NCBI GenBank assembly: GCA_000004985.1
Contig: GG738891.1
From: Naegleria gruberi
Taxonomy: Eukaryota
DNA: 64,000 nucleotides
Strand: one strand, 5' to 3'
A program made the translations under genes and the position numbers. Shown in pieces: positions 13,601-62,398 of this stretch (positions are counted from its first letter, which is position 1; the number at the start of each line of letters is the position of its first letter). The notes below the pieces were generated by a model that searched no databases, was not told where the DNA came from, and worked only from the letters and a program-made list of their open reading frames with translations.

Positions 13601-16600
13601 NNNNNNNNNNNNNNNNNNNNNNNNNNNNNNNNNNNNNNNNNNNNNNNNNNNNNNNNNNNNNNNNNNNNNNNNNNNNNNNNNNNNNNNNNNNNNNNNNNNN
13701 NNNNNNNNNNNNNNNNNNNNNNNNNNNNNNNNNNNNNNNNNNNNNNNNNNNNNNNNNNNNNNNNNNNNNNNNNNNNNNNNNNNNNNNNNNNNNNNNNNNN
13801 NNNNNNNNNNNNNNNNNNNNNNNNNNNNNNNNNNNNNNNNNNNNNNNNNNNNNNNNNNNNNNNNNNNNNNNNNNNNNNNNNNNNNNNNNNNNNNNNNNNN
13901 NNNNNNNNNNNNNNNNNNNNNNNNNNNNNNNNNNNNNNNNNNNNNNNNNNNNNNNNNNNNNNNNNNNNNNNNNNNNNNNNNNNNNNNNNNNNNNNNNNNN
14001 NNNNNNNNNNNNNNNNNNNNNNNNNNNNNNNNNNNNNNNNNNNNNNNNNNNNNNNNNNNNNNNNNNNNNNNNNNNNNNNNNNNNNNNNNNNNNNNNNNNN
14101 NNNNNNNNNNNNNNNNNNNNNNNNNNNNNNNNNNNNNNNNNNNNNNNNNNNNNNNNNNNNNNNNNNNNNNNNNNNNNNNNNNNNNNNNNNNNNNNNNNNN
14201 NNNNNNNNNNNNNNNNNNNNNNNNNNNNNNNNNNNNNNNNNNNNNNNNNNNNNNNNNNNNNNNNNNNNNNNNNNNNNNNNNNNNNNNNNNNNNNNNNNNN
14301 NNNNNNNNNNNNNNNNNNNNNNNNNNNNNNNNNNNNNNNNNNNNNNNNNNNNNNNNNNNNNNNNNNNNNNNNNNNNNNNNNNNNNNNNNNNNNNNNNNNN
14401 NNNNNNNNNNNNNNNNNNNNNNNNNNNNNNNNNNNNNNNNNNNNNNNNNNNNNNNNNNNNNNNNNNNNNNNNNNNNNNNNNNNNNNNNNNNNNNNNNNNN
14501 NNNNNNNNNNNNNNNNNNNNNNNNNNNNNNNNNNNNNNNNNNNNNNNNNNNNNNNNNNNNNNNNNNNNNNNNNNNNNNNNNNNNNNNNNNNNNNNNNNNN
14601 NNNNNNNNNNNNNNNNNNNNNNNNNNNNNNNNNNNNNNNNNNNNNNNNNNNNNNNNNNNNNNNNNNNNNNNNNNNNNNNNNNNNNNNNNNNNNNNNNNNN
14701 NNNNNNNNNNNNNNNNNNNNNNNNNNNNNNNNNNNNNNNNNNNNNNNNNNNNNNNNNNNNNNNNNNNNNNNNNNNNNNNNNNNNNNNNNNNNNNNNNNNN
14801 NNNNNNNNNNNNNNNNNNNNNNNNNNNNNNNNNNNNNNNNNNNNNNNNNNNNNNNNNNNNNNNNNNNNNNNNNNNNNNNNNNNNNNNNNNNNNNNNNNNN
14901 NNNNNNNNNNNNNNNNNNNNNNNNNNNNNNNNNNNNNNNNNNNNNNNNNNNNNNNNNNNNNNNNNNNNNNNNNNNNNNNNNNNNNNNNNNNNNNNNNNNN
15001 NNNNNNNNNNNNNNNNNNNNNNNNNNNNNNNNNNNNNNNNNNNNNNNNNNNNNNNNNNNNNNNNNNNNNNNNNNNNNNNNNNNNNNNNNNNNNNNNNNNN
15101 NNNNNNNNNNNNNNNNNNNNNNNNNNNNNNNNNNNNNNNNNNNNNNNNNNNNNNNNNNNNNNNNNNNNNNNNNNNNNNNNNNNNNNNNNNNNNNNNNNNN
15201 NNNNNNNNNNNNNNNNNNNNNNNNNNNNNNNNNNNNNNNNNNNNNNNNNNNNNNNNNNNNNNNNNNNNNNNNNNNNNNNNNNNNNNNNNNNNNNNNNNNN
15301 NNNNNNNNNNNNNNNNNNNNNNNNNNNNNNNNNNNNNNNNNNNNNNNNNNNNNNNNNNNNNNNNNNNNNNNNNNNNNNNNNNNNNNNNNNNNNNNNNNNN
15401 NNNNNNNNNNNNNNNNNNNNNNNNNNNNNNNNNNNNNNNNNNNNNNNNNNNNNNNNNNNNNNNNNNNNNNNNNNNNNNNNNNNNNNNNNNNNNNNNNNNN
15501 NNNNNNNNNNNNNNNNNNNNNNNNNNNNNNNNNNNNNNNNNNNNNNNNNNNNNNNNNNNNNNNNNNNNNNNNNNNNNNNNNNNNNNNNNNNNNNNNNNNN
15601 NNNNNNNNNNNNNNNNNNNNNNNNNNNNNNNNNNNNNNNNNNNNNNNNNNNNNNNNNNNNNNNNNNNNNNNNNNNNNNNNNNNNNNNNNNNNNNNNNNNN
15701 NNNNNNNNNNNNNNNNNNNNNNNNNNNNNNNNNNNNNNNNNNNNNNNNNNNNNNNNNNNNNNNNNNNNNNNNNNNNNNNNNNNNNNNNNNNNNNNNNNNN
15801 NNNNNNNNNNNNNNNNNNNNNNNNNNNNNNNNNNNNNNNNNNNNNNNNNNNNNNNNNNNNNNNNNNNNNNNNNNNNNNNNNNNNNNNNNNNNNNNNNNNN
15901 NNNNNNNNNNNNNNNNNNNNNNNNNNNNNNNNNNNNNNNNNNNNNNNNNNNNNNNNNNNNNNNNNNNNNNNNNNNNNNNNNNNNNNNNNNNNNNNNNNNN
16001 NNNNNNNNNNNNNNNNNNNNNNNNNNNNNNNNNNNNNNNNNNNNNNNNNNNNNNNNNNNNNNNNNNNNNNNNNNNNNNNNNNNNNNNNNNNNNNNNNNNN
16101 NNNNNNNNNNNNNNNNNNNNNNNNNNNNNNNNNNNNNNNNNNNNNNNNNNNNNNNNNNNNNNNNNNNNNNNNNNNNNNNNNNNNNNNNNNNNNNNNNNNN
16201 NNNNNNNNNNNNNNNNNNNNNNNNNNNNNNNNNNNNNNNNNNNNNNNNNNNNNNNNNNNNNNNNNNNNNNNNNNNNNNNNNNNNNNNNNNNNNNNNNNNN
16301 NNNNNNNNNNNNNNNNNNNNNNNNNNNNNNNNNNNNNNNNNNNNNNNNNNNNNNNNNNNNNNNNNNNNNNNNNNNNNNNNNNNNNNNNNNNNNNNNNNNN
16401 NNNNNNNNNNNNNNNNNNNNNNNNNNNNNNNNNNNNNNNNNNNNNNNNNNNNNNNNNNNNNNNNNNNNNNNNNNNNNNNNNNNNNNNNNNNNNNNNNNNN
16501 NNNNNNNNNNNNNNNNNNNNNNNNNNNNNNNNNNNNNNNNNNNNNNNNNNNNNNNNNNNNNNNNNNNNNNNNNNNNNNNNNNNNNNNNNNNNNNNNNNNN

Positions 16601-19600
16601 NNNNNNNNNNNNNNNNNNNNNNNNNNNNNNNNNNNNNNNNNNNNNNNNNNNNNNNNNNNNNNNNNNNNNNNNNNNNNNNNNNNNNNNNNNNNNNNNNNNN
16701 NNNNNNNNNNNNNNNNNNNNNNNNNNNNNNNNNNNNNNNNNNNNNNNNNNNNNNNNNNNNNNNNNNNNNNNNNNNNNNNNNNNNNNNNNNNNNNNNNNNN
16801 NNNNNNNNNNNNNNNNNNNNNNNNNNNNNNNNNNNNNNNNNNNNNNNNNNNNNNNNNNNNNNNNNNNNNNNNNNNNNNNNNNNNNNNNNNNNNNNNNNNN
16901 NNNNNNNNNNNNNNNNNNNNNNNNNNNNNNNNNNNNNNNNNNNNNNNNNNNNNNNNNNNNNNNNNNNNNNNNNNNNNNNNNNNNNNNNNNNNNNNNNNNN
17001 NNNNNNNNNNNNNNNNNNNNNNNNNNNNNNNNNNNNNNNNNNNNNNNNNNNNNNNNNNNNNNNNNNNNNNNNNNNNNNNNNNNNNNNNNNNNNNNNNNNN
17101 NNNNNNNNNNNNNNNNNNNNNNNNNNNNNNNNNNNNNNNNNNNNNNNNNNNNNNNNNNNNNNNNNNNNNNNNNNNNNNNNNNNNNNNNNNNNNNNNNNNN
17201 NNNNNNNNNNNNNNNNNNNNNNNNNNNNNNNNNNNNNNNNNNNNNNNNNNNNNNNNNNNNNNNNNNNNNNNNNNNNNNNNNNNNNNNNNNNNNNNNNNNN
17301 NNNNNNNNNNNNNNNNNNNNNNNNNNNNNNNNNNNNNNNNNNNNNNNNNNNNNNNNNNNNNNNNNNNNNNNNNNNNNNNNNNNNNNNNNNNNNNNNNNNN
17401 NNNNNNNNNNNNNNNNNNNNNNNNNNNNNNNNNNNNNNNNNNNNNNNNNNNNNNNNNNNNNNNNNNNNNNNNNNNNNNNNNNNNNNNNNNNNNNNNNNNN
17501 NNNNNNNNNNNNNNNNNNNNNNNNNNNNNNNNNNNNNNNNNNNNNNNNNNNNNNNNNNNNNNNNNNNNNNNNNNNNNNNNNNNNNNNNNNNNNNNNNNNN
17601 NNNNNNNNNNNNNNNNNNNNNNNNNNNNNNNNNNNNNNNNNNNNNNNNNNNNNNNNNNNNNNNNNNNNNNNNNNNNNNNNNNNNNNNNNNNNNNNNNNNN
17701 NNNNNNNNNNNNNNNNNNNNNNNNNNNNNNNNNNNNNNNNNNNNNNNNNNNNNNNNNNNNNNNNNNNNNNNNNNNNNNNNNNNNNNNNNNNNNNNNNNNN
17801 NNNNNNNNNNNNNNNNNNNNNNNNNNNNNNNNNNNNNNNNNNNNNNNNNNNNNNNNNNNNNNNNNNNNNNNNNNNNNNNNNNNNNNNNNNNNNNNNNNNN
17901 NNNNNNNNNNNNNNNNNNNNNNNNNNNNNNNNNNNNNNNNNNNNNNNNNNNNNNNNNNNNNNNNNNNNNNNNNNNNNNNNNNNNNNNNNNNNNNNNNNNN
18001 NNNNNNNNNNNNNNNNNNNNNNNNNNNNNNNNNNNNNNNNNNNNNNNNNNNNNNNNNNNNNNNNNNNNNNNNNNNNNNNNNNNNNNNNNNNNNNNNNNNN
18101 NNNNNNNNNNNNNNNNNNNNNNNNNNNNNNNNNNNNNNNNNNNNNNNNNNNNNNNNNNNNNNNNNNNNNNNNNNNNNNNNNNNNNNNNNNNNNNNNNNNN
18201 NNNNNNNNNNNNNNNNNNNNNNNNNNNNNNNNNNNNNNNNNNNNNNNNNNNNNNNNNNNNNNNNNNNNNNNNNNNNNNNNNNNNNNNNNNNNNNNNNNNN
18301 NNNNNNNNNNNNNNNNNNNNNNNNNNNNNNNNNNNNNNNNNNNNNNNNNNNNNNNNNNNNNNNNNNNNNNNNNNNNNNNNNNNNNNNNNNNNNNNNNNNN
18401 NNNNNNNNNNNNNNNNNNNNNNNNNNNNNNNNNNNNNNNNNNNNNNNNNNNNNNNNNNNNNNNNNNNNNNNNNNNNNNNNNNNNNNNNNNNNNNNNNNNN
18501 NNNNNNNNNNNNNNNNNNNNNNNNNNNNNNNNNNNNNNNNNNNNNNNNNNNNNNNNNNNNNNNNNNNNNNNNNNNNNNNNNNNNNNNNNNNNNNNNNNNN
18601 NNNNNNNNNNNNNNNNNNNNNNNNNNNNNNNNNNNNNNNNNNNNNNNNNNNNNNNNNNNNNNNNNNNNNNNNNNNNNNNNNNNNNNNNNNNNNNNNNNNN
18701 NNNNNNNNNNNNNNNNNNNNNNNNNNNNNNNNNNNNNNNNNNNNNNNNNNNNNNNNNNNNNNNNNNNNNNNNNNNNNNNNNNNNNNNNNNNNNNNNNNNN
18801 NNNNNNNNNNNNNNNNNNNNNNNNNNNNNNNNNNNNNNNNNNNNNNNNNNNNNNNNNNNNNNNNNNNNNNNNNNNNNNNNNNNNNNNNNNNNNNNNNNNN
18901 NNNNNNNNNNNNNNNNNNNNNNNNNNNNNNNNNNNNNNNNNNNNNNNNNNNNNNNNNNNNNNNNNNNNNNNNNNNNNNNNNNNNNNNNNNNNNNNNNNNN
19001 NNNNNNNNNNNNNNNNNNNNNNNNNNNNNNNNNNNNNNNNNNNNNNNNNNNNNNNNNNNNNNNNNNNNNNNNNNNNNNNNNNNNNNNNNNNNNNNNNNNN
19101 NNNNNNNNNNNNNNNNNNNNNNNNNNNNNNNNNNNNNNNNNNNNNNNNNNNNNNNNNNNNNNNNNNNNNNNNNNNNNNNNNNNNNNNNNNNNNNNNNNNN
19201 NNNNNNNNNNNNNNNNNNNNNNNNNNNNNNNNNNNNNNNNNNNNNNNNNNNNNNNNNNNNNNNNNNNNNNNNNNNNNNNNNNNNNNNNNNNNNNNNNNNN
19301 NNNNNNNNNNNNNNNNNNNNNNNNNNNNNNNNNNNNNNNNNNNNNNNNNNNNNNNNNNNNNNNNNNNNNNNNNNNNNNNNNNNNNNNNNNNNNNNNNNNN
19401 NNNNNNNNNNNNNNNNNNNNNNNNNNNNNNNNNNNNNNNNNNNNNNNNNNNNNNNNNNNNNNNNNNNNNNNNNNNNNNNNNNNNNNNNNNNNNNNNNNNN
19501 NNNNNNNNNNNNNNNNNNNNNNNNNNNNNNNNNNNNNNNNNNNNNNNNNNNNNNNNNNNNNNNNNNNNNNNNNNNNNNNNNNNNNNNNNNNNNNNNNNNN

Positions 19601-22600
19601 NNNNNNNNNNNNNNNNNNNNNNNNNNNNNNNNNNNNNNNNNNNNNNNNNNNNNNNNNNNNNNNNNNNNNNNNNNNNNNNNNNNNNNNNNNNNNNNNNNNN
19701 NNNNNNNNNNNNNNNNNNNNNNNNNNNNNNNNNNNNNNNNNNNNNNNNNNNNNNNNNNNNNNNNNNNNNNNNNNNNNNNNNNNNNNNNNNNNNNNNNNNN
19801 NNNNNNNNNNNNNNNNNNNNNNNNNNNNNNNNNNNNNNNNNNNNNNNNNNNNNNNNNNNNNNNNNNNNNNNNNNNNNNNNNNNNNNNNNNNNNNNNNNNN
19901 NNNNNNNNNNNNNNNNNNNNNNNNNNNNNNNNNNNNNNNNNNNNNNNNNNNNNNNNNNNNNNNNNNNNNNNNNNNNNNNNNNNNNNNNNNNNNNNNNNNN
20001 NNNNNNNNNNNNNNNNNNNNNNNNNNNNNNNNNNNNNNNNNNNNNNNNNNNNNNNNNNNNNNNNNNNNNNNNNNNNNNNNNNNNNNNNNNNNNNNNNNNN
20101 NNNNNNNNNNNNNNNNNNNNNNNNNNNNNNNNNNNNNNNNNNNNNNNNNNNNNNNNNNNNNNNNNNNNNNNNNNNNNNNNNNNNNNNNNNNNNNNNNNNN
20201 NNNNNNNNNNNNNNNNNNNNNNNNNNNNNNNNNNNNNNNNNNNNNNNNNNNNNNNNNNNNNNNNNNNNNNNNNNNNNNNNNNNNNNNNNNNNNNNNNNNN
20301 NNNNNNNNNNNNNNNNNNNNNNNNNNNNNNNNNNNNNNNNNNNNNNNNNNNNNNNNNNNNNNNNNNNNNNNNNNNNNNNNNNNNNNNNNNNNNNNNNNNN
20401 NNNNNNNNNNNNNNNNNNNNNNNNNNNNNNNNNNNNNNNNNNNNNNNNNNNNNNNNNNNNNNNNNNNNNNNNNNNNNNNNNNNNNNNNNNNNNNNNNNNN
20501 NNNNNNNNNNNNNNNNNNNNNNNNNNNNNNNNNNNNNNNNNNNNNNNNNNNNNNNNNNNNNNNNNNNNNNNNNNNNNNNNNNNNNNNNNNNNNNNNNNNN
20601 NNNNNNNNNNNNNNNNNNNNNNNNNNNNNNNNNNNNNNNNNNNNNNNNNNNNNNNNNNNNNNNNNNNNNNNNNNNNNNNNNNNNNNNNNNNNNNNNNNNN
20701 NNNNNNNNNNNNNNNNNNNNNNNNNNNNNNNNNNNNNNNNNNNNNNNNNNNNNNNNNNNNNNNNNNNNNNNNNNNNNNNNNNNNNNNNNNNNNNNNNNNN
20801 NNNNNNNNNNNNNNNNNNNNNNNNNNNNNNNNNNNNNNNNNNNNNNNNNNNNNNNNNNNNNNNNNNNNNNNNNNNNNNNNNNNNNNNNNNNNNNNNNNNN
20901 NNNNNNNNNNNNNNNNNNNNNNNNNNNNNNNNNNNNNNNNNNNNNNNNNNNNNNNNNNNNNNNNNNNNNNNNNNNNNNNNNNNNNNNNNNNNNNNNNNNN
21001 NNNNNNNNNNNNNNNNNNNNNNNNNNNNNNNNNNNNNNNNNNNNNNNNNNNNNNNNNNNNNNNNNNNNNNNNNNNNNNNNNNNNNNNNNNNNNNNNNNNN
21101 NNNNNNNNNNNNNNNNNNNNNNNNNNNNNNNNNNNNNNNNNNNNNNNNNNNNNNNNNNNNNNNNNNNNNNNNNNNNNNNNNNNNNNNNNNNNNNNNNNNN
21201 NNNNNNNNNNNNNNNNNNNNNNNNNNNNNNNNNNNNNNNNNNNNNNNNNNNNNNNNNNNNNNNNNNNNNNNNNNNNNNNNNNNNNNNNNNNNNNNNNNNN
21301 NNNNNNNNNNNNNNNNNNNNNNNNNNNNNNNNNNNNNNNNNNNNNNNNNNNNNNNNNNNNNNNNNNNNNNNNNNNNNNNNNNNNNNNNNNNNNNNNNNNN
21401 NNNNNNNNNNNNNNNNNNNNNNNNNNNNNNNNNNNNNNNNNNNNNNNNNNNNNNNNNNNNNNNNNNNNNNNNNNNNNNNNNNNNNNNNNNNNNNNNNNNN
21501 NNNNNNNNNNNNNNNNNNNNNNNNNNNNNNNNNNNNNNNNNNNNNNNNNNNNNNNNNNNNNNNNNNNNNNNNNNNNNNNNNNNNNNNNNNNNNNNNNNNN
21601 NNNNNNNNNNNNNNNNNNNNNNNNNNNNNNNNNNNNNNNNNNNNNNNNNNNNNNNNNNNNNNNNNNNNNNNNNNNNNNNNNNNNNNNNNNNNNNNNNNNN
21701 NNNNNNNNNNNNNNNNNNNNNNNNNNNNNNNNNNNNNNNNNNNNNNNNNNNNNNNNNNNNNNNNNNNNNNNNNNNNNNNNNNNNNNNNNNNNNNNNNNNN
21801 NNNNNNNNNNNNNNNNNNNNNNNNNNNNNNNNNNNNNNNNNNNNNNNNNNNNNNNNNNNNNNNNNNNNNNNNNNNNNNNNNNNNNNNNNNNNNNNNNNNN
21901 NNNNNNNNNNNNNNNNNNNNNNNNNNNNNNNNNNNNNNNNNNNNNNNNNNNNNNNNNNNNNNNNNNNNNNNNNNNNNNNNNNNNNNNNNNNNNNNNNNNN
22001 NNNNNNNNNNNNNNNNNNNNNNNNNNNNNNNNNNNNNNNNNNNNNNNNNNNNNNNNNNNNNNNNNNNNNNNNNNNNNNNNNNNNNNNNNNNNNNNNNNNN
22101 NNNNNNNNNNNNNNNNNNNNNNNNNNNNNNNNNNNNNNNNNNNNNNNNNNNNNNNNNNNNNNNNNNNNNNNNNNNNNNNNNNNNNNNNNNNNNNNNNNNN
22201 NNNNNNNNNNNNNNNNNNNNNNNNNNNNNNNNNNNNNNNNNNNNNNNNNNNNNNNNNNNNNNNNNNNNNNNNNNNNNNNNNNNNNNNNNNNNNNNNNNNN
22301 NNNNNNNNNNNNNNNNNNNNNNNNNNNNNNNNNNNNNNNNNNNNNNNNNNNNNNNNNNNNNNNNNNNNNNNNNNNNNNNNNNNNNNNNNNNNNNNNNNNN
22401 NNNNNNNNNNNNNNNNNNNNNNNNNNNNNNNNNNNNNNNNNNNNNNNNNNNNNNNNNNNNNNNNNNNNNNNNNNNNNNNNNNNNNNNNNNNNNNNNNNNN
22501 NNNNNNNNNNNNNNNNNNNNNNNNNNNNNNNNNNNNNNNNNNNNNNNNNNNNNNNNNNNNNNNNNNNNNNNNNNNNNNNNNNNNNNNNNNNNNNNNNNNN

Positions 22601-24540
22601 NNNNNNNNNNNNNNNNNNNNNNNNNNNNNNNNNNNNNNNNNNNNNNNNNNNNNNNNNNNNNNNNNNNNNNNNNNNNNNNNNNNNNNNNNNNNNNNNNNNN
22701 NNNNNNNNNNNNNNNNNNNNNNNNNNNNNNNNNNNNNNNNNNNNNNNNNNNNNNNNNNNNNNNNNNNNNNNNNNNNNNNNNNNNNNNNNNNNNNNNNNNN
22801 NNNNNNNNNNNNNNNNNNNNNNNNNNNNNNNNNNNNNNNNNNNNNNNNNNNNNNNNNNNNNNNNNNNNNNNNNNNNNNNNNNNNNNNNNNNNNNNNNNNN
22901 NNNNNNNNNNNNNNNNNNNNNNNNNNNNNNNNNNNNNNNNNNNNNNNNNNNNNNNNNNNNNNNNNNNNNNNNNNNNNNNNNNNNNNNNNNNNNNNNNNNN
23001 NNNNNNNNNNNNNNNNNNNNNNNNNNNNNNNNNNNNNNNNNNNNNNNNNNNNNNNNNNNNNNNNNNNNNNNNNNNNNNNNNNNNNNNNNNNNNNNNNNNN
23101 NNNNNNNNNNNNNNNNNNNNNNNNNNNNNNNNNNNNNNNNNNNNNNNNNNNNNNNNNNNNNNNNNNNNNNNNNNNNNNNNNNNNNNNNNNNNNNNNNNNN
23201 NNNNNNNNNNNNNNNNNNNNNNNNNNNNNNNNNNNNNNNNNNNNNNNNNNNNNNNNNNNNNNNNNNNNNNNNNNNNNNNNNNNNNNNNNNNNNNNNNNNN
23301 NNNNNNNNNNNNNNNNNNNNNNNNNNNNNNNNNNNNNNNNNNNNNNNNNNNNNNNNNNNNNNNNNNNNNNNNNNNNNNNNNNNNNNNNNNNNNNNNNNNN
23401 NNNNNNNNNNNNNNNNNNNNNNNNNNNNNNNNNNNNNNNNNNNNNNNNNNNNNNNNNNNNNNNNNNNNNNNNNNNNNNNNNNNNNNNNNNNNNNNNNNNN
23501 NNNNNNNNNNNNNNNNNNNNNNNNNNNNNNNNNNNNNNNNNNNNNNNNNNNNNNNNNNNNNNNNNNNNNNNNNNNNNNNNNNNNNNNNNNNNNNNNNNNN
23601 NNNNNNNNNNNNNNNNNNNNNNNNNNNNNNNNNNNNNNNNNNNNNNNNNNNNNNNNNNNNNNNNNNNNNNNNNNNNNNNNNNNNNNNNNNNNNNNNNNNN
23701 NNNNNNNNNNNNNNNNNNNNNNNNNNNNNNNNNNNNNNNNNNNNNNNNNNNNNNNNNNNNNNNNNNNNNNNNNNNNNNNNNNNNNNNNNNNNNNNNNNNN
23801 NNNNNNNNNNNNNNNNNNNNNNNNNNNNNNNNNNNNNNNNNNNNNNNNNNNNNNNNNNNNNNNNNNNNNNNNNNNNNNNNNNNNNNNNNNNNNNNNNNNN
23901 NNNNNNNNNNNNNNNNNNNNNNNNNNNNNNNNNNNNNNNNNNNNNNNNNNNNNNNNNNNNNNNNNNNNNNNNNNNNNNNNNNNNNNNNNNNNNNNNNNNN
24001 NNNNNNNNNNNNNNNNNNNNNNNNNNNNNNNNNNNNNNNNNNNNNNNNNNNNNNNNNNNNNNNNNNNNNNNNNNNNNNNNNNNNNNNNNNNNNNNNNNNN
24101 NNNNNNNNNNNNNNNNNNNNNNNNNNNNNNNNNNNNNNNNNNNNNNNNNNNNNNNNNNNNNNNNNNNNNNNNNNNNNNNNNNNNNNNNNNNNNNNNNNNN
24201 NNNNNNNNNNNNNNNNNNNNNNNNNNNNNNNNNNNNNNNNNNNNNNNNNNNNNNNNNNNNNNNNNNNNNNNNNNNNNNNNNNNNNNNNNNNNNNNNNNNN
24301 NNNNNNNNNNNNNNNNNNNNNNNNNNNNNNNNNNNNNNNNNNNNNNNNNNNNNNNNNNNNNNNNNNNNNNNNNNNNNNNNNNNNNNNNNNNNNNNNNNNN
24401 NNNNNNNNNNNNNNNNNNNNNNNNNNNNNNNNNNNNNNNNNNNNNNNNNNNNNNNNNNNNNNNNNNNNNNNNNNNNNNNNNNNNNNNNNNNNNNNNNNNN
24501 NNNNNNNNNNNNNNNNNNNNNNNNNNNNNNNNNNNNNNNN
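10646..24540. other. Assembly gap (13895 N)
   Basis: N run. It probably hides the 5' ends of the flanking genes, including further EGF repeats of the gene starting at 24541. Confidence 0.95.
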
Positions 24541-27500
24541 AATGTTTTGGATTGAATTCCAGTGATAATTCAGTTTGTTCAAGTCATGGTCAATGTATTA
24601 ATGCTGACACTTGTCAATGTAATACTGGATGGTTTGGAAGTAACTGCTCAATTCACTCCTGCAATGGAACTAGTTCACAAGATTTAAAACACGTCTGCAA
24701 TGGAAATGGAGTATGTATTCAAATGGACAAGTGTGATTGTAATAATGGATGGTTTGGATCTGATTGTTCAATTCATTCTTGTAATGGAACCAGTTCACAA
24801 GATTTACACAGTGTTTGTAATAATGGTAATGGTCAGTGCATTGGAACAGAGTTGTGTTTGTGTAACCAAAATTGGGCTGGTCAGTTCTGTACTATTCCTA
24901 AATGTTTTGGCGTTATTTCTACAGACGCTACAGTTTGCTCTACTCATGGTAATTGTACTGATATTAATACTTGTCAATGTAATACAGGTTGGTTTGGAAC
25001 TGATTGTTCAATTCACTCCTGCAATGGAACTAGTTCACAAGATTTAAAACACGTCTGCAATGAGGAAATGGAGTATGTGTTCAAATGGACAAGTGTGATT
25101 GTAATAAGGGATGGTTTGGATCTGATTGTTCAATTCATTCTTGTAATGGAACCAGTTCACAAGATGAGCAAAATGTTTGTAATGGAGGAAGAGGTCAATG
25201 TATTGGCACTGATATTTGCTCATGTAATGAAACATGGACAGGTCAATTCTGTGAAATTCCAAAATGTTTTGGATTGAATTCCAGTGATAATTCAGTTTGT
25301 TCCAGTCATGGTCAATGTATTAATGCTGACACTTGTCATTGTAATAAGGGATGGTTTGGTAGTAACTGCTCAATTCATTCGTGTAATGGAACTAGTTCAC
25401 AAGATGTGCAAAACGTTTGTAATGGAGGAAATGGTCAGTGCATTGGAACAGATTTGTGTTTGTGTAACCAAAATTGGGCTGGTCAGTTCTGTACTATTCC
25501 TAAATGTTATGGCGTTATTTCTACAGACGCTACAGTTTGCTCTACTCATGGTAACTGTACTGATATTAATACTTGCCAATGTAATACAGGTTGGTTTGGT
25601 CCATTATGTAGTATTCACTCCTGCAATGGAACTAGTTCACAAGATTTAAAACACGTCTGCAATGGTGGTAATGGAGTATGCATTCAAATGGATAAGTGTG
25701 ATTGTAAATCTGGTTGGACAGGCCAGTTCTGTGAAATTCCAACATGTTTCGGATTAGCTTCAACTGCTAAAAAAGTGTGTGCTGGTCATGGAGATTGCAT
25801 GAGCTCTGATAAATGCTCTTGTAATAATGGATGGTTTGGATCTGATTGTTCAATTCATTCTTGTAATGGAACTAGTTCACAAGATGAGCAAAATGTTTGT
25901 AATGGAGGAAGAGGTCAATGTATTGGCACTGATATTTGCTCATGTAATGAAACATGGACAGGTCAATTCTGTGAAATTCCTAAATGTTTTGGATTGAATT
26001 CAAGTGATAATTCAGTTTGTTCCAGTCATGGTCAATGTATTAATGCTAACACTTGTCATTGTAATAAGGGATGGTTTGGTAGTAACTGCTCAATTCATTC
26101 ATGTAATGGAACAAGTTCACAAGATGTACAAAACGTTTGTAATGGAGGAAATGGTGAGTGCATTGGAATAGAGTTGTGTTTGTGTGACCAAAATTGGNNN
26201 NNNNNNNNNNNNNNNNNNNNNNNNNNNNNNNNNNNNNNNNNNNNNNNNNNNNNNNNNNNNNNNNNNNNNNNNNNNNNNNNNNNNNNNNNNNNNNNNNNNN
26301 NNNNNNNNNNNNNNNNNNNNNNNNNNNNNNNNNNNNNNNNNNNNNNNNNNNNNNNNNNNNNNNNNNNNNNNNNNNNNNNNNNNNNNNNNNNNNNNNNNNN
26401 NNNNNNNNNNNNNNNNNNNNNNNNNNNNNNNNNNNNNNNNNNNNNNNNNNNNNNNNNNNNNNNNNNNNNNNNNNNNNNNNNNNNNNNNNNNNNNNNNNNN
26501 NNNNNNNNNNNNNNNNNNNNNNNNNNNNNNNNNNNNNNNNNNNNNNNNNNNNNNNNNNNNNNNNNNNNNNNNNNNNNNNNNNNNNNNNNNNNNNNNNNNN
26601 NNNNNNNNNNNNNNNNNNNNNNNNNNNNNNNNNNNNNNNNNNNNNNNNNNNNNNNNNNNNNNNNNNNNNNNNNNNNNNNNNNNNNNNNNNNNNNNNNNNN
26701 NNNNNNNNNNNNNNNNNNNNNNNNNNNNNNNNNNNNNNNNNNNNNNNNNNNNNNNNNNNNNNNNNNNNNNNNNNNNNNNNNNNNNNNNNNNNNNNNNNNN
26801 NNNNNNNNNNNNNNNNNNNNNNNNNNNNNNNNNNNNNNNNNNNNNNNNNNNAATAATGAAGGAAATGGATTACTGTTCCAAATGACCTCTCCAAATCATT
26901 TCACATCCTTAAATGTTGATTGTAACAATTTATTAGATTCTTCAAGTATTTCCTCATTTGGTTCAAATGTAGTTTGTAGATATTCTAATAAGACATCCAA
27001 TGATTTTATTATTGAATTGGGAACTGATAATTCTATTCAAGTTGATCAAGAAATTTTATTGAATAGAAATGTGTTTAATAGAAACAAATTAGGAAATGAT
27101 TATCAATCATTCAAAATTGGAAATGCTGAAAATCCCATTCCACCAACAATTTTAATTTCTCAAAAAACAACATATTCAAGTTGTGAAAATATTCTATTGG
27201 ATGCAAGTGAAAGTTATTCCACAGATGGAAAACAAATTTCCTATAAATGGGAAATTGTATCTTCCAACATGATGACACTTCCAAACAATAATTCAAGCAA
27301 ACTGTCAATCACCTATGACAGTATAAATGCTGGAAGTCATACTTTCAAATTGACAACTACAAGCCAAATTTTGAAAACATCCTCATCTAAGCAAGTCACA
27401 TTCCAAAAATTGAATTATGCAACACCTGTCATTTCTATTGAAGGAAGTGACAGCCTTTCACTTTCAACAAGCTCATTGCCTTTGATTGTAAGAAAATTAA

Positions 27501-46468: not shown

Positions 46469-47980
46469 TTATTCTTTCACATTGTCAAAATCCTTGATAG
46501 AATAAATGGAACAAGTATCTAATATGAAATCTCGCATGTAGAGAAAGTTTTTAGCATATTTTAGGCATTTCTTATTGATTCGAATAGCCTTTCTTATAAA
46601 TGCCTCGTTAGTCGAATAATCTGATTCAATTAAGGAAATGGCAAAGTCGTCATCGTTCTTGATTGCTTCCAACATGATATCTTCATCACATCTTGCTTTT
46701 TCTAACTCTTCATATCTCAATGAATGAAATTTCGTCAAGTTTCTAATTTTTCCATAAATAACTTCCTTTGACGAACCAATCGATTGGTGTTTTCTCATCC
46801 AAAAATCAATTCCAACACGTGGAATCCAAATATCTTGTTCATTATCTACTTGTTGTGGAAGATTAGTTGTCAGTTGTTGTTGAACTTGAAGAGAAGCAAA
46901 TTTCAAAGCATCTAGATTTTGGTCAACTGCACTTTTTACAATATCATAATCTGATTTGAATTTCTCAAGAGTAAATTCTAAAGCAAGAGGGTGGTTTCTA
47001 ATAGCTGTTAAATTAATGAGCTCGCTGTCTAGAAGAGGAGGTTTAACAAACTCTAACGCTCGTCCGTCTTGGTTGACTGCGATCATTACAATTGTTTCGT
47101 TGAAACTCTTGATGGAATCATGAGCATATTCTAATTCTAACCCATTTTTCTTGACCAGTTCAGTGACGATGAGTTCATTATTATTGTGAGCTTTCAGATA
47201 TTTTAGAAATTTCGGATAAACTTTCTTCTTGATGCAATTCAATACGAAATTCACTTCCTTCACTAGAGGAGTAATTTCCAGAATGGAAGGTTCTTTCAAT
47301 ACAGCTCTAGTGACTAATTCTTCATTAGTTTTCAATGAAACATCCACAAATCTAATGCAGTTTCCATTTAGTTTTACACATTTCAAAGCAAAATCAAAGT
47401 TTCGTCTCAAATCTTCATGAGCAAATGTCAAATTTACAGGTTTAATCTTCACTGCCTCATAAATCATCTGCTCATCCCTACAAAACTCTTCATTCATTTC
47501 GAATATTTCCTTAACTAATTCTCCTCCACCACTTTCCAAAGCTTTCAATGCAACTATTCGATTCTTCTTTAATTTTTCACTCAAAAATCTATACGAATCA
47601 CCCTCACTCTTCACAGCAGCCAACCCAAACTCAAAATCATCTTTAAACTCAACTGGCATTTCTCTAATAAACAACCCAAATTGACCCAAACATTCCTTTA
47701 TAAAAATTCGATCCGTTATCAAATCTTGTGGAATTTTCTTCATCAAATACTTGGGTCCATATATTCTAGTGAGAGAAAACGCCAAAATCTTTGTGTATTT
47801 CATGGTTTGTAGTTCGTGTGATGATTGTTGGAAAACTGATCGGAGGAGAAAACTCTTGAAAGTTTGATCGAGAATGAGTTGAACGGAAGTTTCGTCCAAA
47901 TCATCTTCTTGATGTGAAATCATTTTTTTTGAAGCTTGAATTTGTTGAATTAAACACGGTGTTATTAGTTGGACTAACAT
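46469..47980 (-). CDS. DUF4116-repeat protein
   Basis: 503-aa ORF with ATG at 47980. It contains repeated about 35-aa units of the DUF4116 type: FEFGLAAVKSEGDSYRFLSEKLKKNRIVALKALESGG, FDFALKCVKLNGNCIRFVDVSLKTNEELVTRAVLKEP, and IVMIAVNQDGRALEFVKPPLLDSELINLTAIRNHPLALEF...YDIVKSAVDQNLDALKFASLQ. Confidence 0.5.
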   Translation of the reverse strand: MLVQLITPCLIQQIQASKKMISHQEDDLDETSVQLILDQTFKSFLLRSVFQQSSHELQTMKYTKILAFSLTRIYGPKYLMKKIPQDLITDRIFIKECLGQFGLFIREMPVEFKDDFEFGLAAVKSEGDSYRFLSEKLKKNRIVALKALESGGGELVKEIFEMNEEFCRDEQMIYEAVKIKPVNLTFAHEDLRRNFDFALKCVKLNGNCIRFVDVSLKTNEELVTRAVLKEPSILEITPLVKEVNFVLNCIKKKVYPKFLKYLKAHNNNELIVTELVKKNGLELEYAHDSIKSFNETIVMIAVNQDGRALEFVKPPLLDSELINLTAIRNHPLALEFTLEKFKSDYDIVKSAVDQNLDALKFASLQVQQQLTTNLPQQVDNEQDIWIPRVGIDFWMRKHQSIGSSKEVIYGKIRNLTKFHSLRYEELEKARCDEDIMLEAIKNDDDFAISLIESDYSTNEAFIRKAIRINKKCLKYAKNFLYMRDFILDTCSIYSIKDFDNVKE

Positions 47981-48208
47981 TCTTTCTATTTATAAGCAAT
48001 TTCCTATAATTTCATGTTCATAATCTTGAATGAACACTTTACAATAATTTACAATTCTGTTTTATAAAAAAACGAAAAATTTCAATATATTAAATTGTTT
48101 AATCGTACTTCCTCCTAGTGCGTAGTGCTATTCCGTTGTTTGATCATCCTTTTGGTTCAAAATATCCCGCTTCAAGGATTCTTTATTCGAAACTCAATTA
48201 CAAAAAAA

Positions 48209-48964
48209 ATGTCAACACTTCAAAATCTCTGCAAACACTATCTGACAGCTCTTGATTCTGCCTTTCAACAAGCACTTGATTATTATCAAGAAATCAACGA
48301 TCAAACAAATGGTTGGGTCAATTACAAAACTACACCTGAACAAGCTCAGTATTTCATTAACAAGAAGAAACATTCGTATTGGATTTGGATGGGAGAAATG
48401 AAGAATGTGGAGATTCCAGAAAGTATTGCCAAAAATTCAAGAGATTTGATCAAGTATTTGGATGAGGAAAGTGAACGAAAGTTGTGGGATGAAGAATTTG
48501 TATCAGGTGTAAAAATTCATGACAAGATTGAAAAGAATTGTAACGAAACTTGTAAGAACGGAAGTGATCATTCTGATTTTAATGTTTATTATAGAGTTTT
48601 CACAGTAGGATCCAAAGCAGTTTCGAATAGAGAATTCGTCATTTCTAGAAATATTTATCAAGATCCAAAGTTGGAAAATGTAACTTGGATGTGCAATCAA
48701 ACACCTTTAGATTTTCCAGATTATGAACACAAGAAGGCACCTACAAATTCATCATGTGTTAGAGGAACAGTTCATGTCACTGCTTGGAGATTCGAACAGT
48801 TGAAATCTTCCATTTCTGGAAAATCTGTTTTTAACATTTCTGTAATTAGTCATTCTGAACCTGGTGGATGGGTGACTGCTTCTTTTTTCAATAATGGAGC
48901 AGGAGATCGTCCAGCATCAGCCGTTGTGAGATTAGTCAAATATTTACAAAGTAAACAAAACTAG
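48209..48964 (+). CDS. START/Bet v1-like (SRPBCC) lipid-binding domain protein
   Basis: The true ATG is at 48209 (MSTLQNLCKHY...); the track start at 48125 is a GTG. The C-terminal half has a START-like pattern: SNREFVISRNIYQDP...VTWMCNQTPLDFPD...SCVRGTVHVTAWRFEQL...ISHSEPGGWVTASFFNNGAGDRPASAVVRLVKYL. Confidence 0.45.
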   Translation: MSTLQNLCKHYLTALDSAFQQALDYYQEINDQTNGWVNYKTTPEQAQYFINKKKHSYWIWMGEMKNVEIPESIAKNSRDLIKYLDEESERKLWDEEFVSGVKIHDKIEKNCNETCKNGSDHSDFNVYYRVFTVGSKAVSNREFVISRNIYQDPKLENVTWMCNQTPLDFPDYEHKKAPTNSSCVRGTVHVTAWRFEQLKSSISGKSVFNISVISHSEPGGWVTASFFNNGAGDRPASAVVRLVKYLQSKQN

Positions 48965-49023: not shown

Positions 49024-51834
49024 ATGAATGAACAGGAACCGATTCTCTCCACCACAGGTCGTCTCGCCAATGCTCCCTACAAAATCTTCGATTGGGATCA
49101 AGAGGAGCCTCCTCTCTCTCGTGAAAAAGCCATTGAAAATCTAATGCAAGCGGAATATTACAACTACACTGTTGAGGAGATTATCGAGGAAGGTATTGAT
49201 CCAAATGAATATGGAAGGGCAAGGTTTATTTCCGAAGCCTTGATCATGATGGAAAATACGGGTGATGATGAGAAGGAAAATCAAGTAAAAAAACAACCAT
49301 CAACAATAAGAAGAGAAGATGATGATGAACCAAAGTTTTGGAGGAGAAGGGACTTGTTGATTCCTGGACAATCAATTCAAATTCCTTCAAAGATTACGAC
49401 AGTGCACTTGTTGAAGGAAAAACCGATTGAACATCAAGAGAAAAGTGGTGATGATTATGATAATGATTATGAGGAAGATAATGAGGAAAAGGAAAGCCAG
49501 GATGTTGAAACAATTATCAATCAAGATCGTTGTATTTATATTGGAAGTTTACTATCCCGAACAGAATGTAGTGATTTGATTGATTCCACATCAAGATTGG
49601 GATATGCAGAAATTGATAAGGAATATCCAAAGGAATATCGTAATAGTGAGAGAGTTTTGGTCAAGAGTAAGAAACTTGCGGACATGATTTGGTCTCGAAT
49701 TGTTCCATTCTTGAAAAAGTCTGATATTGATGGTGTGAAACCTTATGGTTTTGATAATGATGGTTGTTGGGTTCCTTGTGGAATTAATGAAGTATTGAGA
49801 TTCAACAAGTATAGTCGTGGAACTTTCTTTAAACCTCACACTGATGCTCAATTCGTTAGAAATGATAATGAAAAATCAATCTTCACAGTGTTGGTCTATT
49901 TGAGCGACTCTTCTGCAGCTACAACCCTTCTGAAAAAGGTTGGAGAGAAGATTGAGGATGATAGTATTTCCTTTGATTTCAAAAAGTTGGCATCCATCAA
50001 ACCAACAGAAGGAAGTGTTGGTAAGTTGAATAGATTAATGATTCTAAATAATAATTTAAAGCTATTTTTAACCATGATCTCTATCATGACGGCCAAAAAC
50101 TATACTATGGATCAAAGTATGTTGTGAGAAGTGAAATCATCTTCAAGAGAATTGATAAGGATAGCATTTATAGAATGGATTATAGAAATAGTGAAGAATT
50201 CAAACGAGTAAAGAACCTCATTGATGATAGCTACGAGTTGGAACGTCAAGGTAATTTAACTCAATCCACCATCAAATATATCCAAGCTATGGACTTGCAG
50301 ACATCCTTGTCCCACTCCATTCAAAGAAAATCAAATAGAAAATTGAGTTTTATTGAAGAAAATCTTCCTGAAGAGGTATTCGTTCACATATTTAACTATT
50401 TAACGGATGAAGAAGTTTGTACGAGTGTCATTCCTATCAATTCTGAAATTAATTCAATTGCTAGAAATGAAACCATGTGGGAACAAAGATTTTCAAAAAA
50501 GTGGGGATCTGAAACAATGGAAAAGTCAATTCTTGATAGAGTCATTAGATATGAATATGATGAAAATTATGAACCTACAAATGAAGAGAAGATTGAATTT
50601 CATAGTAAGGAAAATGAAATTATCAATCTTCTTCAAAAAGATACTCACGATTGGTATAATGCATTTTCTTGCAGATCAAATATGGAAAAATCTTTCAATG
50701 CTGTACTTTTAGATCTTGGGCAGCATACTTACAAGTATGGATTAGCAAGTAATAATGCCTATTGGAGATCAATGACAGCTGTCGGTGAACCTAATCATCC
50801 TCACTTTTATTTACCATCCTATGGATTTGACGATGTTATAACAGGAGATAGATTTGTTCAAGCTCAATACCATTGTAGATTGAACAAGTTCTTTAACTCT
50901 AAAGGAGTACCCAAGAAGAAACTGCTCAAAATTTTCCTTTATCAGCTCTATAAGGAAGATTTAAGAGTTAACTTACAAGAACACCCTCTTCTTATGGCTG
51001 TGCCTCCTCACTGGGATAAGGAATACTTGAAAAAGGTGGAACAGGTTGCAGTAAGTTCTCTATATTGCAAATTATATTTAATTTCATTGATAGTTTTCTT
51101 TAGGTATTCCAGCAGTTCACTTTGTGGACTCGTTCAAGCTACTTGCATTGTATTATCAAAAACCAACATCCTTAATTATTAGTGCAACACCAAATGGATC
51201 GACATGTGTACCAGTCATAGATTGTGAGTCTAAGACTGCATGTATGGATATGAATGTGTTTAACATGTACGAGGAGTATAGGAATATGAATGAAGATATG
51301 CGCTATTATGAAATGACTTTCAGAGAGGAAGTATCAGAATTTTTGAAAATTGCCCCTTGCAGTCCGAGCCAAGATCAAAAAGAATTTAATGAATTTGTAC
51401 AAAACCTTGAACCTTTCGAATGGACTTCATACATGGTTTCACCAATCAATGAAAGAGCCAATATTTCGGAAATTTTCTACTCTCATGTATGGGAAAATGT
51501 CCAAAAATCAATCACCTTAATTCGAAATAATCAATCTCTTTCCAATATTGAAAAAGATCAAATTCTAAACAATATTTTAATTGTAGGTGGATTCTCAGCA
51601 TTAACAGGATTTAGAGAAAGAATTAAGAAGGACATTTTGGAATATCTTGGACAAGAATACTCTCCATCATTTACTTTTAGAGAACAGAAGGCTGATTATT
51701 CTGTCAGAAAAACAGGTATCAAGGTCAGCATTGTTGGACAAGATATGGACGTAGTTGGAGGAGCTAGAATTGTTTCCAATCTCTCAAACTTTAGAGAAAT
51801 TTGTAGTTACAATCAAGCATATAACAAGTATTAA
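49024..51834 (+). CDS. Composite ORF of at least 3 exons: prolyl-4-hydroxylase-like 2OG-Fe(II) oxygenase domain, then an F-box motif, then a divergent actin-related protein (Arp)
   Basis: Exon 1 (49024..50020) carries P4Hc-like RCIYIGSLLSRTECSDLI ... and an HxD motif, FKPHTDAQF. A 41-nt intron (GTAAGT 50021 ... AG 50061) in phase 1 restores the second-His region, AIFNHDLYHDGQKLYYGSKYVVRSEIIF. The same frame then continues with no stop for about 1.1 kb. It passes through an F-box (LPEEVFVHIFNYLTDEEVCTSVIPINSEINSIARNETMWEQRFSKKW). It then enters the actin-fold N-terminus (NAVLLDLGQHTYKYGLASNNAYWRSMTAVGEP ... EHPLLMAVPPHWDKEYLKKVEQVAV). After a third intron near 51041-51104 the actin fold continues in track ORF 51124..51834: IPAVHFVDSFKLLALYYQK ... 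ILIVGGFSALTGFRERIKKDI ... VSIVGQDMDVVGGARIVSNLSNF. The obvious GTAAGT donor of that intron is out of phase by 1 nt. A GT 4 nt downstream (a|GTTCTC, about a 49-nt intron) would restore the frame. Confidence 0.55.
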
Positions 51835-51938: not shown

Positions 51939-52652
51939 TTATTTTGAAGGTGTGTGATTTACAAATTCCCACTTTCTCTTTCTTGGAATAGTTACTGGTT
52001 CTGTTGTTTCCAAAATTGGTTGGTATTGGATATTTTCATATGCAGTTATATTTTTTCTTAGTTCTGCCCTTGCACTGTTTTCATAGTCGTTTTTGTTGAT
52101 GATAATTACATTATATTCGAAATTACGACAGAGTGGCCTAAAAAACTTTCCTTGAATTTCTAAATAAATTCTTCCTTTGTAGTTTTTGCATTGGGGATAT
52201 TGAGAGATGATATGGATTGCACGATATGCTGTTTCTTTTTTTGGAAAAGTAATAGTTGAAGTTCCAAGCAACGTCAAATCTCTACTTTTTTTAGGTTTGT
52301 GTTTACCATAAATTAGCATTTCAAAACATAATTCAGAAGAATTTTTGCTACAAATAATTTTGAAATCATTGTGAACTGTTTGAATTTCGCTTTTGCTTGG
52401 CAAGATGTTAATGCTAGATGACATTGGCATTTGTTGAGCGGTTTGTTGATTTTGAATTTGTGAGACGTTTTGCAATTGATTTTCATATGGCATATGAATT
52501 AATGTTGGTTGCCGATTCCAGAATTGAGTGTTAATTTTGAAACTCAGTAACTTCATCCTGATAGAGGATAGTTGAGAGTGGTGAGAATATCGAGGGACTT
52601 GAGGCAGTGTTATTGGATGTAACTTGGTGAGTATTATCGGTGATATCTTCAT
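51939..52652 (-). CDS. Hypothetical protein (237 aa), no confident domain
   Basis: ORF with ATG at 52652 and a Gln/Asn-rich N-terminal third. The C-terminal part (FKIICSKNSSELCFEMLIYGK...IYLEIQGKFFRPLCRNFEYNVIIINKNDYENSARAELRKN...) is vaguely LURP-one/scramblase-like, but I cannot support a family call. Confidence 0.4.
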   Translation of the reverse strand: MKISPIILTKLHPITLPQVPRYSHHSQLSSIRMKLLSFKINTQFWNRQPTLIHMPYENQLQNVSQIQNQQTAQQMPMSSSINILPSKSEIQTVHNDFKIICSKNSSELCFEMLIYGKHKPKKSRDLTLLGTSTITFPKKETAYRAIHIISQYPQCKNYKGRIYLEIQGKFFRPLCRNFEYNVIIINKNDYENSARAELRKNITAYENIQYQPILETTEPVTIPRKRKWEFVNHTPSK

Positions 52653-54086: not shown

Positions 54087-54137
54087 NNNNNNNNNNNNNN
54101 NNNNNNNNNNNNNNNNNNNNNNNNNNNNNNNNNNNNN
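54087..54137. other. Assembly gap (51 N) joining the truncated membrane-protein gene copy to a PARP 3' fragment
   Basis: N run. Confidence 0.9.
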
Positions 54138-62348: not shown

Positions 62349-62398
62349 NNNNNNNNNNNNNNNNNNNNNNNNNNNNNNNNNNNNNNNNNNNNNNNNNN
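62349..62398. other. Assembly gap (50 N) inside the last exon of the PARP gene
   Basis: N run. The sequence just before the gap (ggaagtactaatggat) differs by two 1-nt indels from the other copy (ggaagttactaattgggat), suggesting low-quality consensus there. Confidence 0.9.

Follow-up and report, generated by a model that had tools for sequence, protein, structure and literature searches.

In animals, KDM2A/FBXL11 and KDM2B/FBXL10 each unite three kinds of domain in one polypeptide: an Fe(II)/2-oxoglutarate (2OG) oxygenase at the N-terminus, an F-box and, at the C-terminus, a module for protein binding; this module consists of leucine-rich repeats, and CXXC and PHD chromatin modules are present in addition. 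A comparable order is found in the iron/oxygen-sensing protein FBXL5, in which the sensor is positioned N-terminal and the substrate-binding domain C-terminal to the F-box, although the sensor of this protein is a hemerythrin domain and not an enzyme, and its receptor is again made of leucine-rich repeats. In Dictyostelium and Toxoplasma, the cytosolic 2OG-Fe(II) oxygenase PhyA is linked through Skp1 to the SCF (Skp1-cullin-F-box) ubiquitin-ligase complex, but PhyA is a stand-alone enzyme of the PHD/EGLN type and lacks an F-box. JcdI/Fbxo13 and JcdH of Dictyostelium are protist non-heme dioxygenases that are at the same time F-box proteins, and JcdI/Fbxo13 is described as binding Skp1 directly via its F-box, as physiologically dependent on O2, as having a Km for O2 near the air level and as being conserved across protists (PMC9485057). 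Here, we describe a gene of the heterolobosean Naegleria gruberi that encodes, in this order, a 2OG-Fe(II) oxygenase domain resembling prolyl 4-hydroxylases (P4Hs), an F-box and an actin-like domain. The gene is located at positions 49024-51834 on the plus strand of a stretch of 64,000 nucleotides (assembly GCA_000004985.1, contig GG738891.1), which is referred to below as the window and to which all coordinates refer (Table 1).

The locus is a single intact gene with three exons and 908 codons. Three successive open reading frames (ORFs) on the same strand (49024-50127, 50124-51182 and 51124-51834) are linked by two short introns; the ATG at 49024 is preceded by an in-frame stop codon, and the reading frame is closed by a TAA at 51832-51834. 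Exon 1 encodes an acidic, low-complexity N-terminal region followed by the N-terminal two thirds of the oxygenase domain, in which H272 (codon 49837-49839) and D274 (codon 49843-49845) lie. Exon 2 completes the oxygenase domain with H341 (codon 50085-50087) and R355 (codon 50127-50129) and continues through a helical linker and the F-box into the actin fold, of which it encodes the first ~135 residues. Since parts of all three domains are encoded by exon 2 alone, separate genes, which the original prediction had kept as an option, are excluded, and its principal proposal, that a single gene encodes a P4H-like 2OG-Fe(II) oxygenase together with an F-box and a full actin-fold domain, is supported; the spliced ORF likewise confirms that no stop codon lies between the three domains.

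Removal of intron 1 yields ...TEGSV-AIFNHDLYHDGQKLYYGSKYVVRSE, corresponding to the AIFNHDLYHDG...KYVVRSE region (hyphens mark splice junctions in this text), and the product aligns without gaps to seven orthologues, which confirms that this 41-nucleotide, phase-1 intron restores the region of the second His and the Arg, as had been proposed. An ORF of a sister species (P0009, 84% identical) runs through the intron 1 site into the same wrong frame. At intron 2, a phase problem of 1 nucleotide had been perceived, and an error or an alternative splice had been suspected. The problem arose because the GTAAGT donor at 51051 was paired with the AG at 51102-51103; when it is paired with the AG at 51092-51093, ten bases upstream, the intron is in phase 0 and the splice product ...KKVEQVA-FSLGIPAVHFVD (EQVA-FSLGIPAVHF) exactly reproduces the sequence of P0001, the deposited N. 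gruberi protein, so that no indel, unusual donor or sequencing error is required. The corrected junction fits the orthologue motif F(S/E)LGIP, a phase-0 GTAAGT...CAG intron is found at the same position in N. lovaniensis (...SDV-FSLGIPG), and the Pfam Actin score increases from 42.8 to 49.5 bits upon the correction. Another pairing, of a GT donor at 51055 with the acceptor at 51102-51103 (...QVAV-SIPAV), is contradicted by P0001, by all orthologues and by the position of the N. lovaniensis intron.

The spliced protein is 100% identical to P0001, which was deposited as a "predicted protein" and starts 40 codons later, at the Met encoded at 49144. Because the N-termini of orthologues conserve an R.A.AP.Y.WD motif that is encoded within 49024-49143, upstream of this Met, the true start is probably the ATG at 49024, and P0001 is probably 40 residues short. 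Further downstream, the N-terminal region contains a Heterolobosea-specific motif, PKFWRRRDLLIPGQSIQ, at residues 103-119 (window ~49330-49380). The motif includes an X-Pro-Gly triplet, the unit that collagen-type P4Hs recognise; it may be a structural strand and nothing more.

An artefact was considered in which two or three neighbouring genes, encoding an oxygenase, an F-box protein and an actin-related protein (Arp), had been merged, or in which the locus was frameshifted. Such an artefact was suggested by the phase problem perceived at intron 2 and by the disagreement in detail among the deposited models, in that the start of P0001 is set 40 codons too far downstream and the F-box is absent from P0004, the deposited N. 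fowleri protein. However, the acceptor at 51092-51093 removes the phase problem, and an ORF from the same species as P0004 (P0010) reads through ...LPEEIFATIFSYL...; because P0010 contains the F-box, that of P0004 was probably removed as a false intron, that is, by an annotation error. The artefact is also contradicted by exon 2 and by the gene structures of relatives: in Willaertia magna, one exon of 569 codons begins at the start codon, spans the oxygenase and the F-box and reaches into the actin fold, and in N. lovaniensis one exon of 324 codons covers the region equivalent to exon 2 with its domain junctions. The same fusion was thus found at the orthologous loci of Naegleria relatives and Willaertia, where a check had originally been proposed. 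In addition, single transcripts (Trinity/MMETSP) containing all three domains are present in five amoebozoan transcriptome assemblies (Physarum, Arcella, Pyxidicula, Soliformovum and Dracoamoeba) and constitute evidence at the cDNA level for the fusion in homologues. Only 59 nucleotides separate the stop codon of the upstream gene (48964) from the ATG at 49024, and no internal stop codon is present. An artefact of this kind is considered extremely improbable.

The N-terminal enzyme domain of the spliced protein matches the Pfam family 2OG-FeII_Oxy_3 (PF13640) with 29.9 bits (cut-off, 27), in agreement with the original domain assignment. Eight heterolobosean sequences all share H272, D274, H341 and R355, and 94 family members show no variation in the HxD...H triad and almost none in the basic residue. 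No Pfam match to JmjC/Cupin was obtained for the N. gruberi protein or for the scanned family members, whereas the oxygenase of KDM2A/B is a JmjC histone demethylase. When a profile of the family's oxygenase domain was searched against the PDB, it retrieved only the P4Hs of Bacillus anthracis (E=2e-4) and Chlamydomonas (E=0.16), and PhyA and PHD chains were absent from the matches even with the limit set at E<=10, although PhyA falls under the same broad PF13640/P4Hc heading. The B. anthracis enzyme (3itq/5hv0) and Chlamydomonas P4H-1 (2jig) are the closest solved relatives and share the HxD...H triad, but identity to collagen-type and bacterial P4Hs is only 12-16%, and their fold scores are level with those of AlkB, PHD2 and other 2OG oxygenases. 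An AF2 model of the domain (predicted local distance difference test, pLDDT, 70.6; moderate confidence) gave Foldseek matches to 2OG oxygenases only, with the Chlamydomonas P4H ranking first. Outside the family, the closest sequence relatives are small proteins from rotifers and fungi and nameless bacterial proteins of ~180 residues, the latter with PF13640 and in many cases PF03336 as well. To judge from its sequence, the domain looks catalytically competent and most similar to P4Hs; because the P4H profile matches are weak and the fold scores are shared with other 2OG oxygenases, "P4H-like" appears to be the fair label.

These data also bear on the suggestion that the protein is a non-catalytic scaffold, in which the oxygenase-like and actin-like domains would both be pseudo-enzymes retained for binding. 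The degenerate ATPase residues of the actin-like domain, described below, would be consistent with a scaffold, as would an oxygenase Pfam score barely over the cut-off, but an invariant Fe(II) triad and a nearly invariant 2OG-binding basic residue in 94 members from three supergroups represent the pattern of an active enzyme, and the scaffold is considered very unlikely.

The oxygenase domain is followed by a conserved linker with the family consensus Y..A..LY..S..L...GD....T..Y..A, for which matches to Pfam TPR_2 stay below threshold, reaching 22.3 bits in one chytrid member and giving nothing in N. gruberi. The F-box comes next and therefore occupies the middle of the protein, unlike the near-N-terminal position found in most F-box proteins. 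Pfam F-box-like is matched by six of the eight orthologues (best E, 6e-9), and the top PDB matches of a profile built from 12 F-box sequences are F-box proteins only, with FBXL5 first (E=1e-6); the matches include FBXW21, Cdc4, FBXO4, KDM2B, KDM2A, FBXL2 and Skp2, and they fall on the F-boxes of these proteins. Together with an LP start and the hydrophobic pattern of the segment, these sequence comparisons indicate that the F-box is real, as had been claimed, although the N. gruberi sequence taken alone lies below the Pfam cut-off, and they support Skp1 binding as a prediction.

The C-terminal domain of the spliced protein matches Pfam Actin (PF00022) with 49.5 bits (cut-off, 27), and a phmmer search against PDB actins gave E=2e-5, covering actin residues 1-319. 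An AF2 model of the domain is confident (pLDDT, 82.5; predicted template modelling score, 0.81), and in Foldseek it aligns with conventional actins over ~385 columns with E~1e-21, a template modelling (TM) score of 0.75-0.79 and 16-17% identity. The model thus indicates a complete, although divergent, four-subdomain actin fold, which bears out the full actin-fold part originally described. The domain shares this complete fold with actins and Arps (Arp1-11 and orphan Arps) but differs from them in its identity of only 16-17% and in the replacement of ATPase residues. Actin D11, G13 and K18 are retained in N. gruberi, whereas Q137 is replaced by K, D154 by A, G156 by P, D157 by N and H161 by C, at positions that are variable across the family. 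Because the residues for actin ATP hydrolysis are replaced, the domain is probably used for binding and would neither polymerise nor hydrolyse ATP as actin does. Dictyostelium filactin is an example of an actin fold preceded by a long N-terminal extension (PMC2441452).

A family-wide motif, G.P.HPH(F/Y), with an invariant His is located within the actin-like domain at alignment columns ~48-56; the N. gruberi version is EPNHPHF, at residues 576-582 (window ~50790-50810). The motif occupies the position of actin GRPRH, at the base of the DNase-I-binding loop. As an exposed Pro/His motif beside a fused hydroxylase, it may be a target in cis or a metal site.

The distribution of the family was analysed by searching a profile of eight full-length proteins against 1.84 billion cluster representatives, which gave 350 hits at E<=1e-30. 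Among 63 long family members, Pfam detected PF13640 in all 63, F-box-like in 40, F-box in 31 and Actin in 25. With locally iterated profiles, the order oxygenase, F-box, actin-like was observed in 83 of the 97 representatives of at least 600 residues, with no exceptions to the order. Members were found in Heterolobosea (Naegleria and Willaertia), in Amoebozoa (Physarum, Tieghemostelium, Cavenderia, Acytostelium, Dictyostelium cf. discoideum, D. purpureum, Arcella, Pyxidicula, Dracoamoeba and Soliformovum) and in chytrids (Rhizophlyctis and Nowakowskiella). The orthologue in D. cf. discoideum is 779 amino acids long (KAM9998903.1); a further homologue search, with an alignment of 63 members, yielded six proteins, none of them under a D. 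discoideum AX4 name. By these sequence criteria, the gene belongs to an old, uncharacterised family with the same domain order in Heterolobosea, Amoebozoa and chytrid fungi. The Arp fusion had been thought unprecedented; at least 83 cluster representatives in three groups share it, and the gene itself had already been deposited. The deposited names of the gene and its relatives are "hypothetical", "F-box domain-containing" and "Fe2OG dioxygenase domain-containing". Two shorter paralogues, P0014 (N. gruberi, 451 amino acids) and P0015 (environmental, 447 amino acids), contain the oxygenase and the F-box, and both end directly after the initial beta-hairpin of the actin fold; such short forms may constitute a true subfamily or result from the same truncation in both gene models. 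Additional domains (ankyrin repeats, rhodanese, FYVE, Macro, NADAR and RanBP zinc ribbon) occur in a few members, and one D. purpureum member is 2127 residues long.

Literature searches found no description of the oxygenase-F-box-actin architecture; the words hydroxylase/oxygenase and F-box have zero occurrences in the Dictyostelium actinome paper (PMC2441452), and one supplementary file of the Skp1-interactome paper does not mention such a protein. Proteins combining an oxygenase with an F-box are already known in the JmjC class (KDM2A/B and JcdI/Fbxo13), and it is for the P4H-like/actin combination that no description was found. JcdI/Fbxo13 is the best functional analogue, although it has a JmjC (JMJD6-like) domain, an F-box near the N-terminus and no actin-like domain (PMC9485057). 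The resemblance to the JmjC F-box proteins is one of architecture and logic only.

Because its architecture follows the logic of a sensor or oxygenase, an F-box and a binding domain seen in KDM2A/B, FBXL5 and JcdI/Fbxo13, the protein is interpreted, on balance, as an SCF-associated oxygenase in which the actin-like domain would set target choice, localisation or stability. The mechanism proposed here is drawn only from the domains and their known relatives. The F-box would dock the protein on Skp1 and thereby give it a place in the SCF complex, and the actin-like domain, positioned C-terminal to the F-box at the usual site of substrate-binding domains, would bind actin or a protein that recognises the actin fold. 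With O2, 2OG and Fe(II), the N-terminal oxygenase would hydroxylate an amino acid that could lie in the bound partner or in the protein itself, and ubiquitylation, or the protein's own stability, would in this way become dependent on oxygen and metabolic state.

Several points weigh against this interpretation. The N. gruberi F-box scores 19.5 bits against Pfam F-box-like, under the cut-off of 24.3, and the count of 83 of 97 representatives comes from domains iterated in a small set of 236 proteins, with E-values that are relative to that set. In Foldseek, P4H, AlkB, PHD2, AspH and fungal oxygenases all match the oxygenase model with E~1e-5, so that the subfamily is not separated, and the term "protein hydroxylase" derives from a weak sequence similarity (E=2e-4). 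Moreover, the F-box of JcdI was dispensable for its O2-related phenotype, which needed the dioxygenase activity (PMC9485057), and by this precedent SCF membership may serve only for turnover.

The JcdI precedent leads to an alternative in which the SCF complex acts upon the enzyme: the oxygenase would function independently of ubiquitylation, the actin-like domain would localise it to actin structures or actin-binding partners, and the F-box would serve only for its own turnover in a manner dependent on oxygen or on the state of Skp1. Besides the phenotype described above, this alternative is favoured by the correlation between Skp1 association and lower JcdI levels (PMC9485057), and by the mid-protein position of the F-box. 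In contrast, both models are equally compatible with an F-box that is strictly conserved between the other two domains in most members. This alternative is regarded as fairly unlikely.

The original prediction had placed the SCF complex in a different role, with the F-box tethering a P4H to Skp1 in order to hydroxylate Skp1 itself, as a cis-recruited equivalent of the PhyA of Dictyostelium and Toxoplasma. This proposal agrees with the real F-box, the retained catalytic residues, the P4Hs as nearest characterised relatives and the name "P4Hc domain-containing protein" given by NCBI to one N. gruberi paralogue. However, the PDB profile search described above retrieved weak matches to the B. anthracis and Chlamydomonas P4Hs and nothing from PhyA/PHD, dictyostelids carry this family in addition to PhyA, and the conserved actin-like domain would be left without a role. 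The target proline of Skp1 lies where Skp1 packs against the F-box, and F-box-bound Skp1 is a poor substrate of PhyA, which also argues against the proposal. Furthermore, deletion of phyA abrogates both the hydroxylation and the glycosylation of Skp1 in Dictyostelium (PMC9485057), and the dictyostelid member of the family therefore does not substitute for PhyA. With an oxygenase that is not PhyA/PHD-like by sequence and with dictyostelids that keep both enzymes, the N. gruberi protein is unlikely to be the dedicated Skp1 prolyl hydroxylase, and an F-box-tethered hydroxylation of Skp1 is considered clearly improbable.

The window derives from the end of an N. gruberi chromosome or scaffold, with a telomere-like CCCAAA array at positions 1-270 that includes occasional CCCCAA variants, and has a G+C content of ~32%. 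Ns account for ~23 kb of its first 27 kb, so that the subtelomeric region is largely unassembled, and the giant "ORFs" located within the subtelomeric N runs are artefacts of the Ns. The fusion gene sits in a tightly packed neighbourhood: a gene encoding a START-domain protein lies directly upstream, and 104 nucleotides separate the stop codon of a convergent ORF from that of the fusion gene.

Table 1. Features of the oxygenase-F-box-actin gene and of its surroundings in the window
Feature	Coordinates	Strand	Description
Exon 1	49024..50020	+	Codons 1-332 and first base of codon 333; ORF and translation
Intron 1	50021..50061	+	41 nucleotides, GTAAGT...AAAG, phase 1
Exon 2	50062..51050	+	Codons 333-662; one uninterrupted exon touching all three domains
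Intron 2	51051..51093	+	43 nucleotides, GTAAGT...ATAG, phase 0; acceptor AG 51092-51093
Exon 3	51094..51834	+	Codons 663-908 and TAA; remainder of the actin-like domain
2OG-Fe(II) oxygenase domain	49516..50159	+	Residues ~165-365; PF13640, double-stranded beta-helix; interrupted by intron 1
Helical linker	50160..50339	+	Residues 366-425; conserved hairpin, weakly TPR-like
F-box	50340..50510	+	Residues 426-482; core LPEEVFVHIFNYL...W at residues 433-474
Actin-like (orphan Arp) domain	50646..51831	+	Residues 528-908; interrupted by intron 2
DUF4116 ORF	46469-47980	-	503 codons; eight DUF4116 (domain of unknown function) repeats; PF13475, 176 bits; repeat family
START-domain protein gene	48206-48964	+	Lipid-binding; PF01852, 34.6 bits
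Convergent ORF	51939-52652	-	237 codons; no Pfam match
N runs (assembly gaps)	735-784, 1635-9763, 10646-24540, 26198-26851, 54087-54137, 62349-62398

At the level of the window the result is modest: a genuine gene that had been deposited before, without the frameshift that had been suspected, and two deposited models in need of minor correction, namely at the start codon in N. gruberi and at the missing F-box in N. fowleri. To our knowledge, protists lack HIF, and among the oxygen sensors connected with their ubiquitin system only PhyA, acting on Skp1, is well understood, while JcdI is a second candidate. The family described here would represent a third, structurally different oxygenase tied to the protist ubiquitin system, one that is physically part of an F-box protein and is shared by three eukaryotic supergroups in conserved form; for an actin-fold domain acting as an SCF receptor module, no description was found. 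A more specific version of the SCF-associated oxygenase, which is speculative and rather doubtful at present, is an SCF arm sensing O2, 2OG and iron whose receptor would be a mimic of actin: the actin-like domain, itself catalytically dead, would capture actin or proteins that bind the actin fold, and the hydroxylase would mark the captured partner or the protein's own G.P.HPH(F/Y) loop. In crawling cells, the turnover of cytoskeletal regulators might in this way be tied to oxygen and metabolic state. Such an arm would fit the distribution of the family, because Heterolobosea, Amoebozoa and chytrids, the only groups in which it has so far been seen, all have amoeboid stages. Orthologues are present in the genetically tractable Dictyostelium, in which these proposals are testable.

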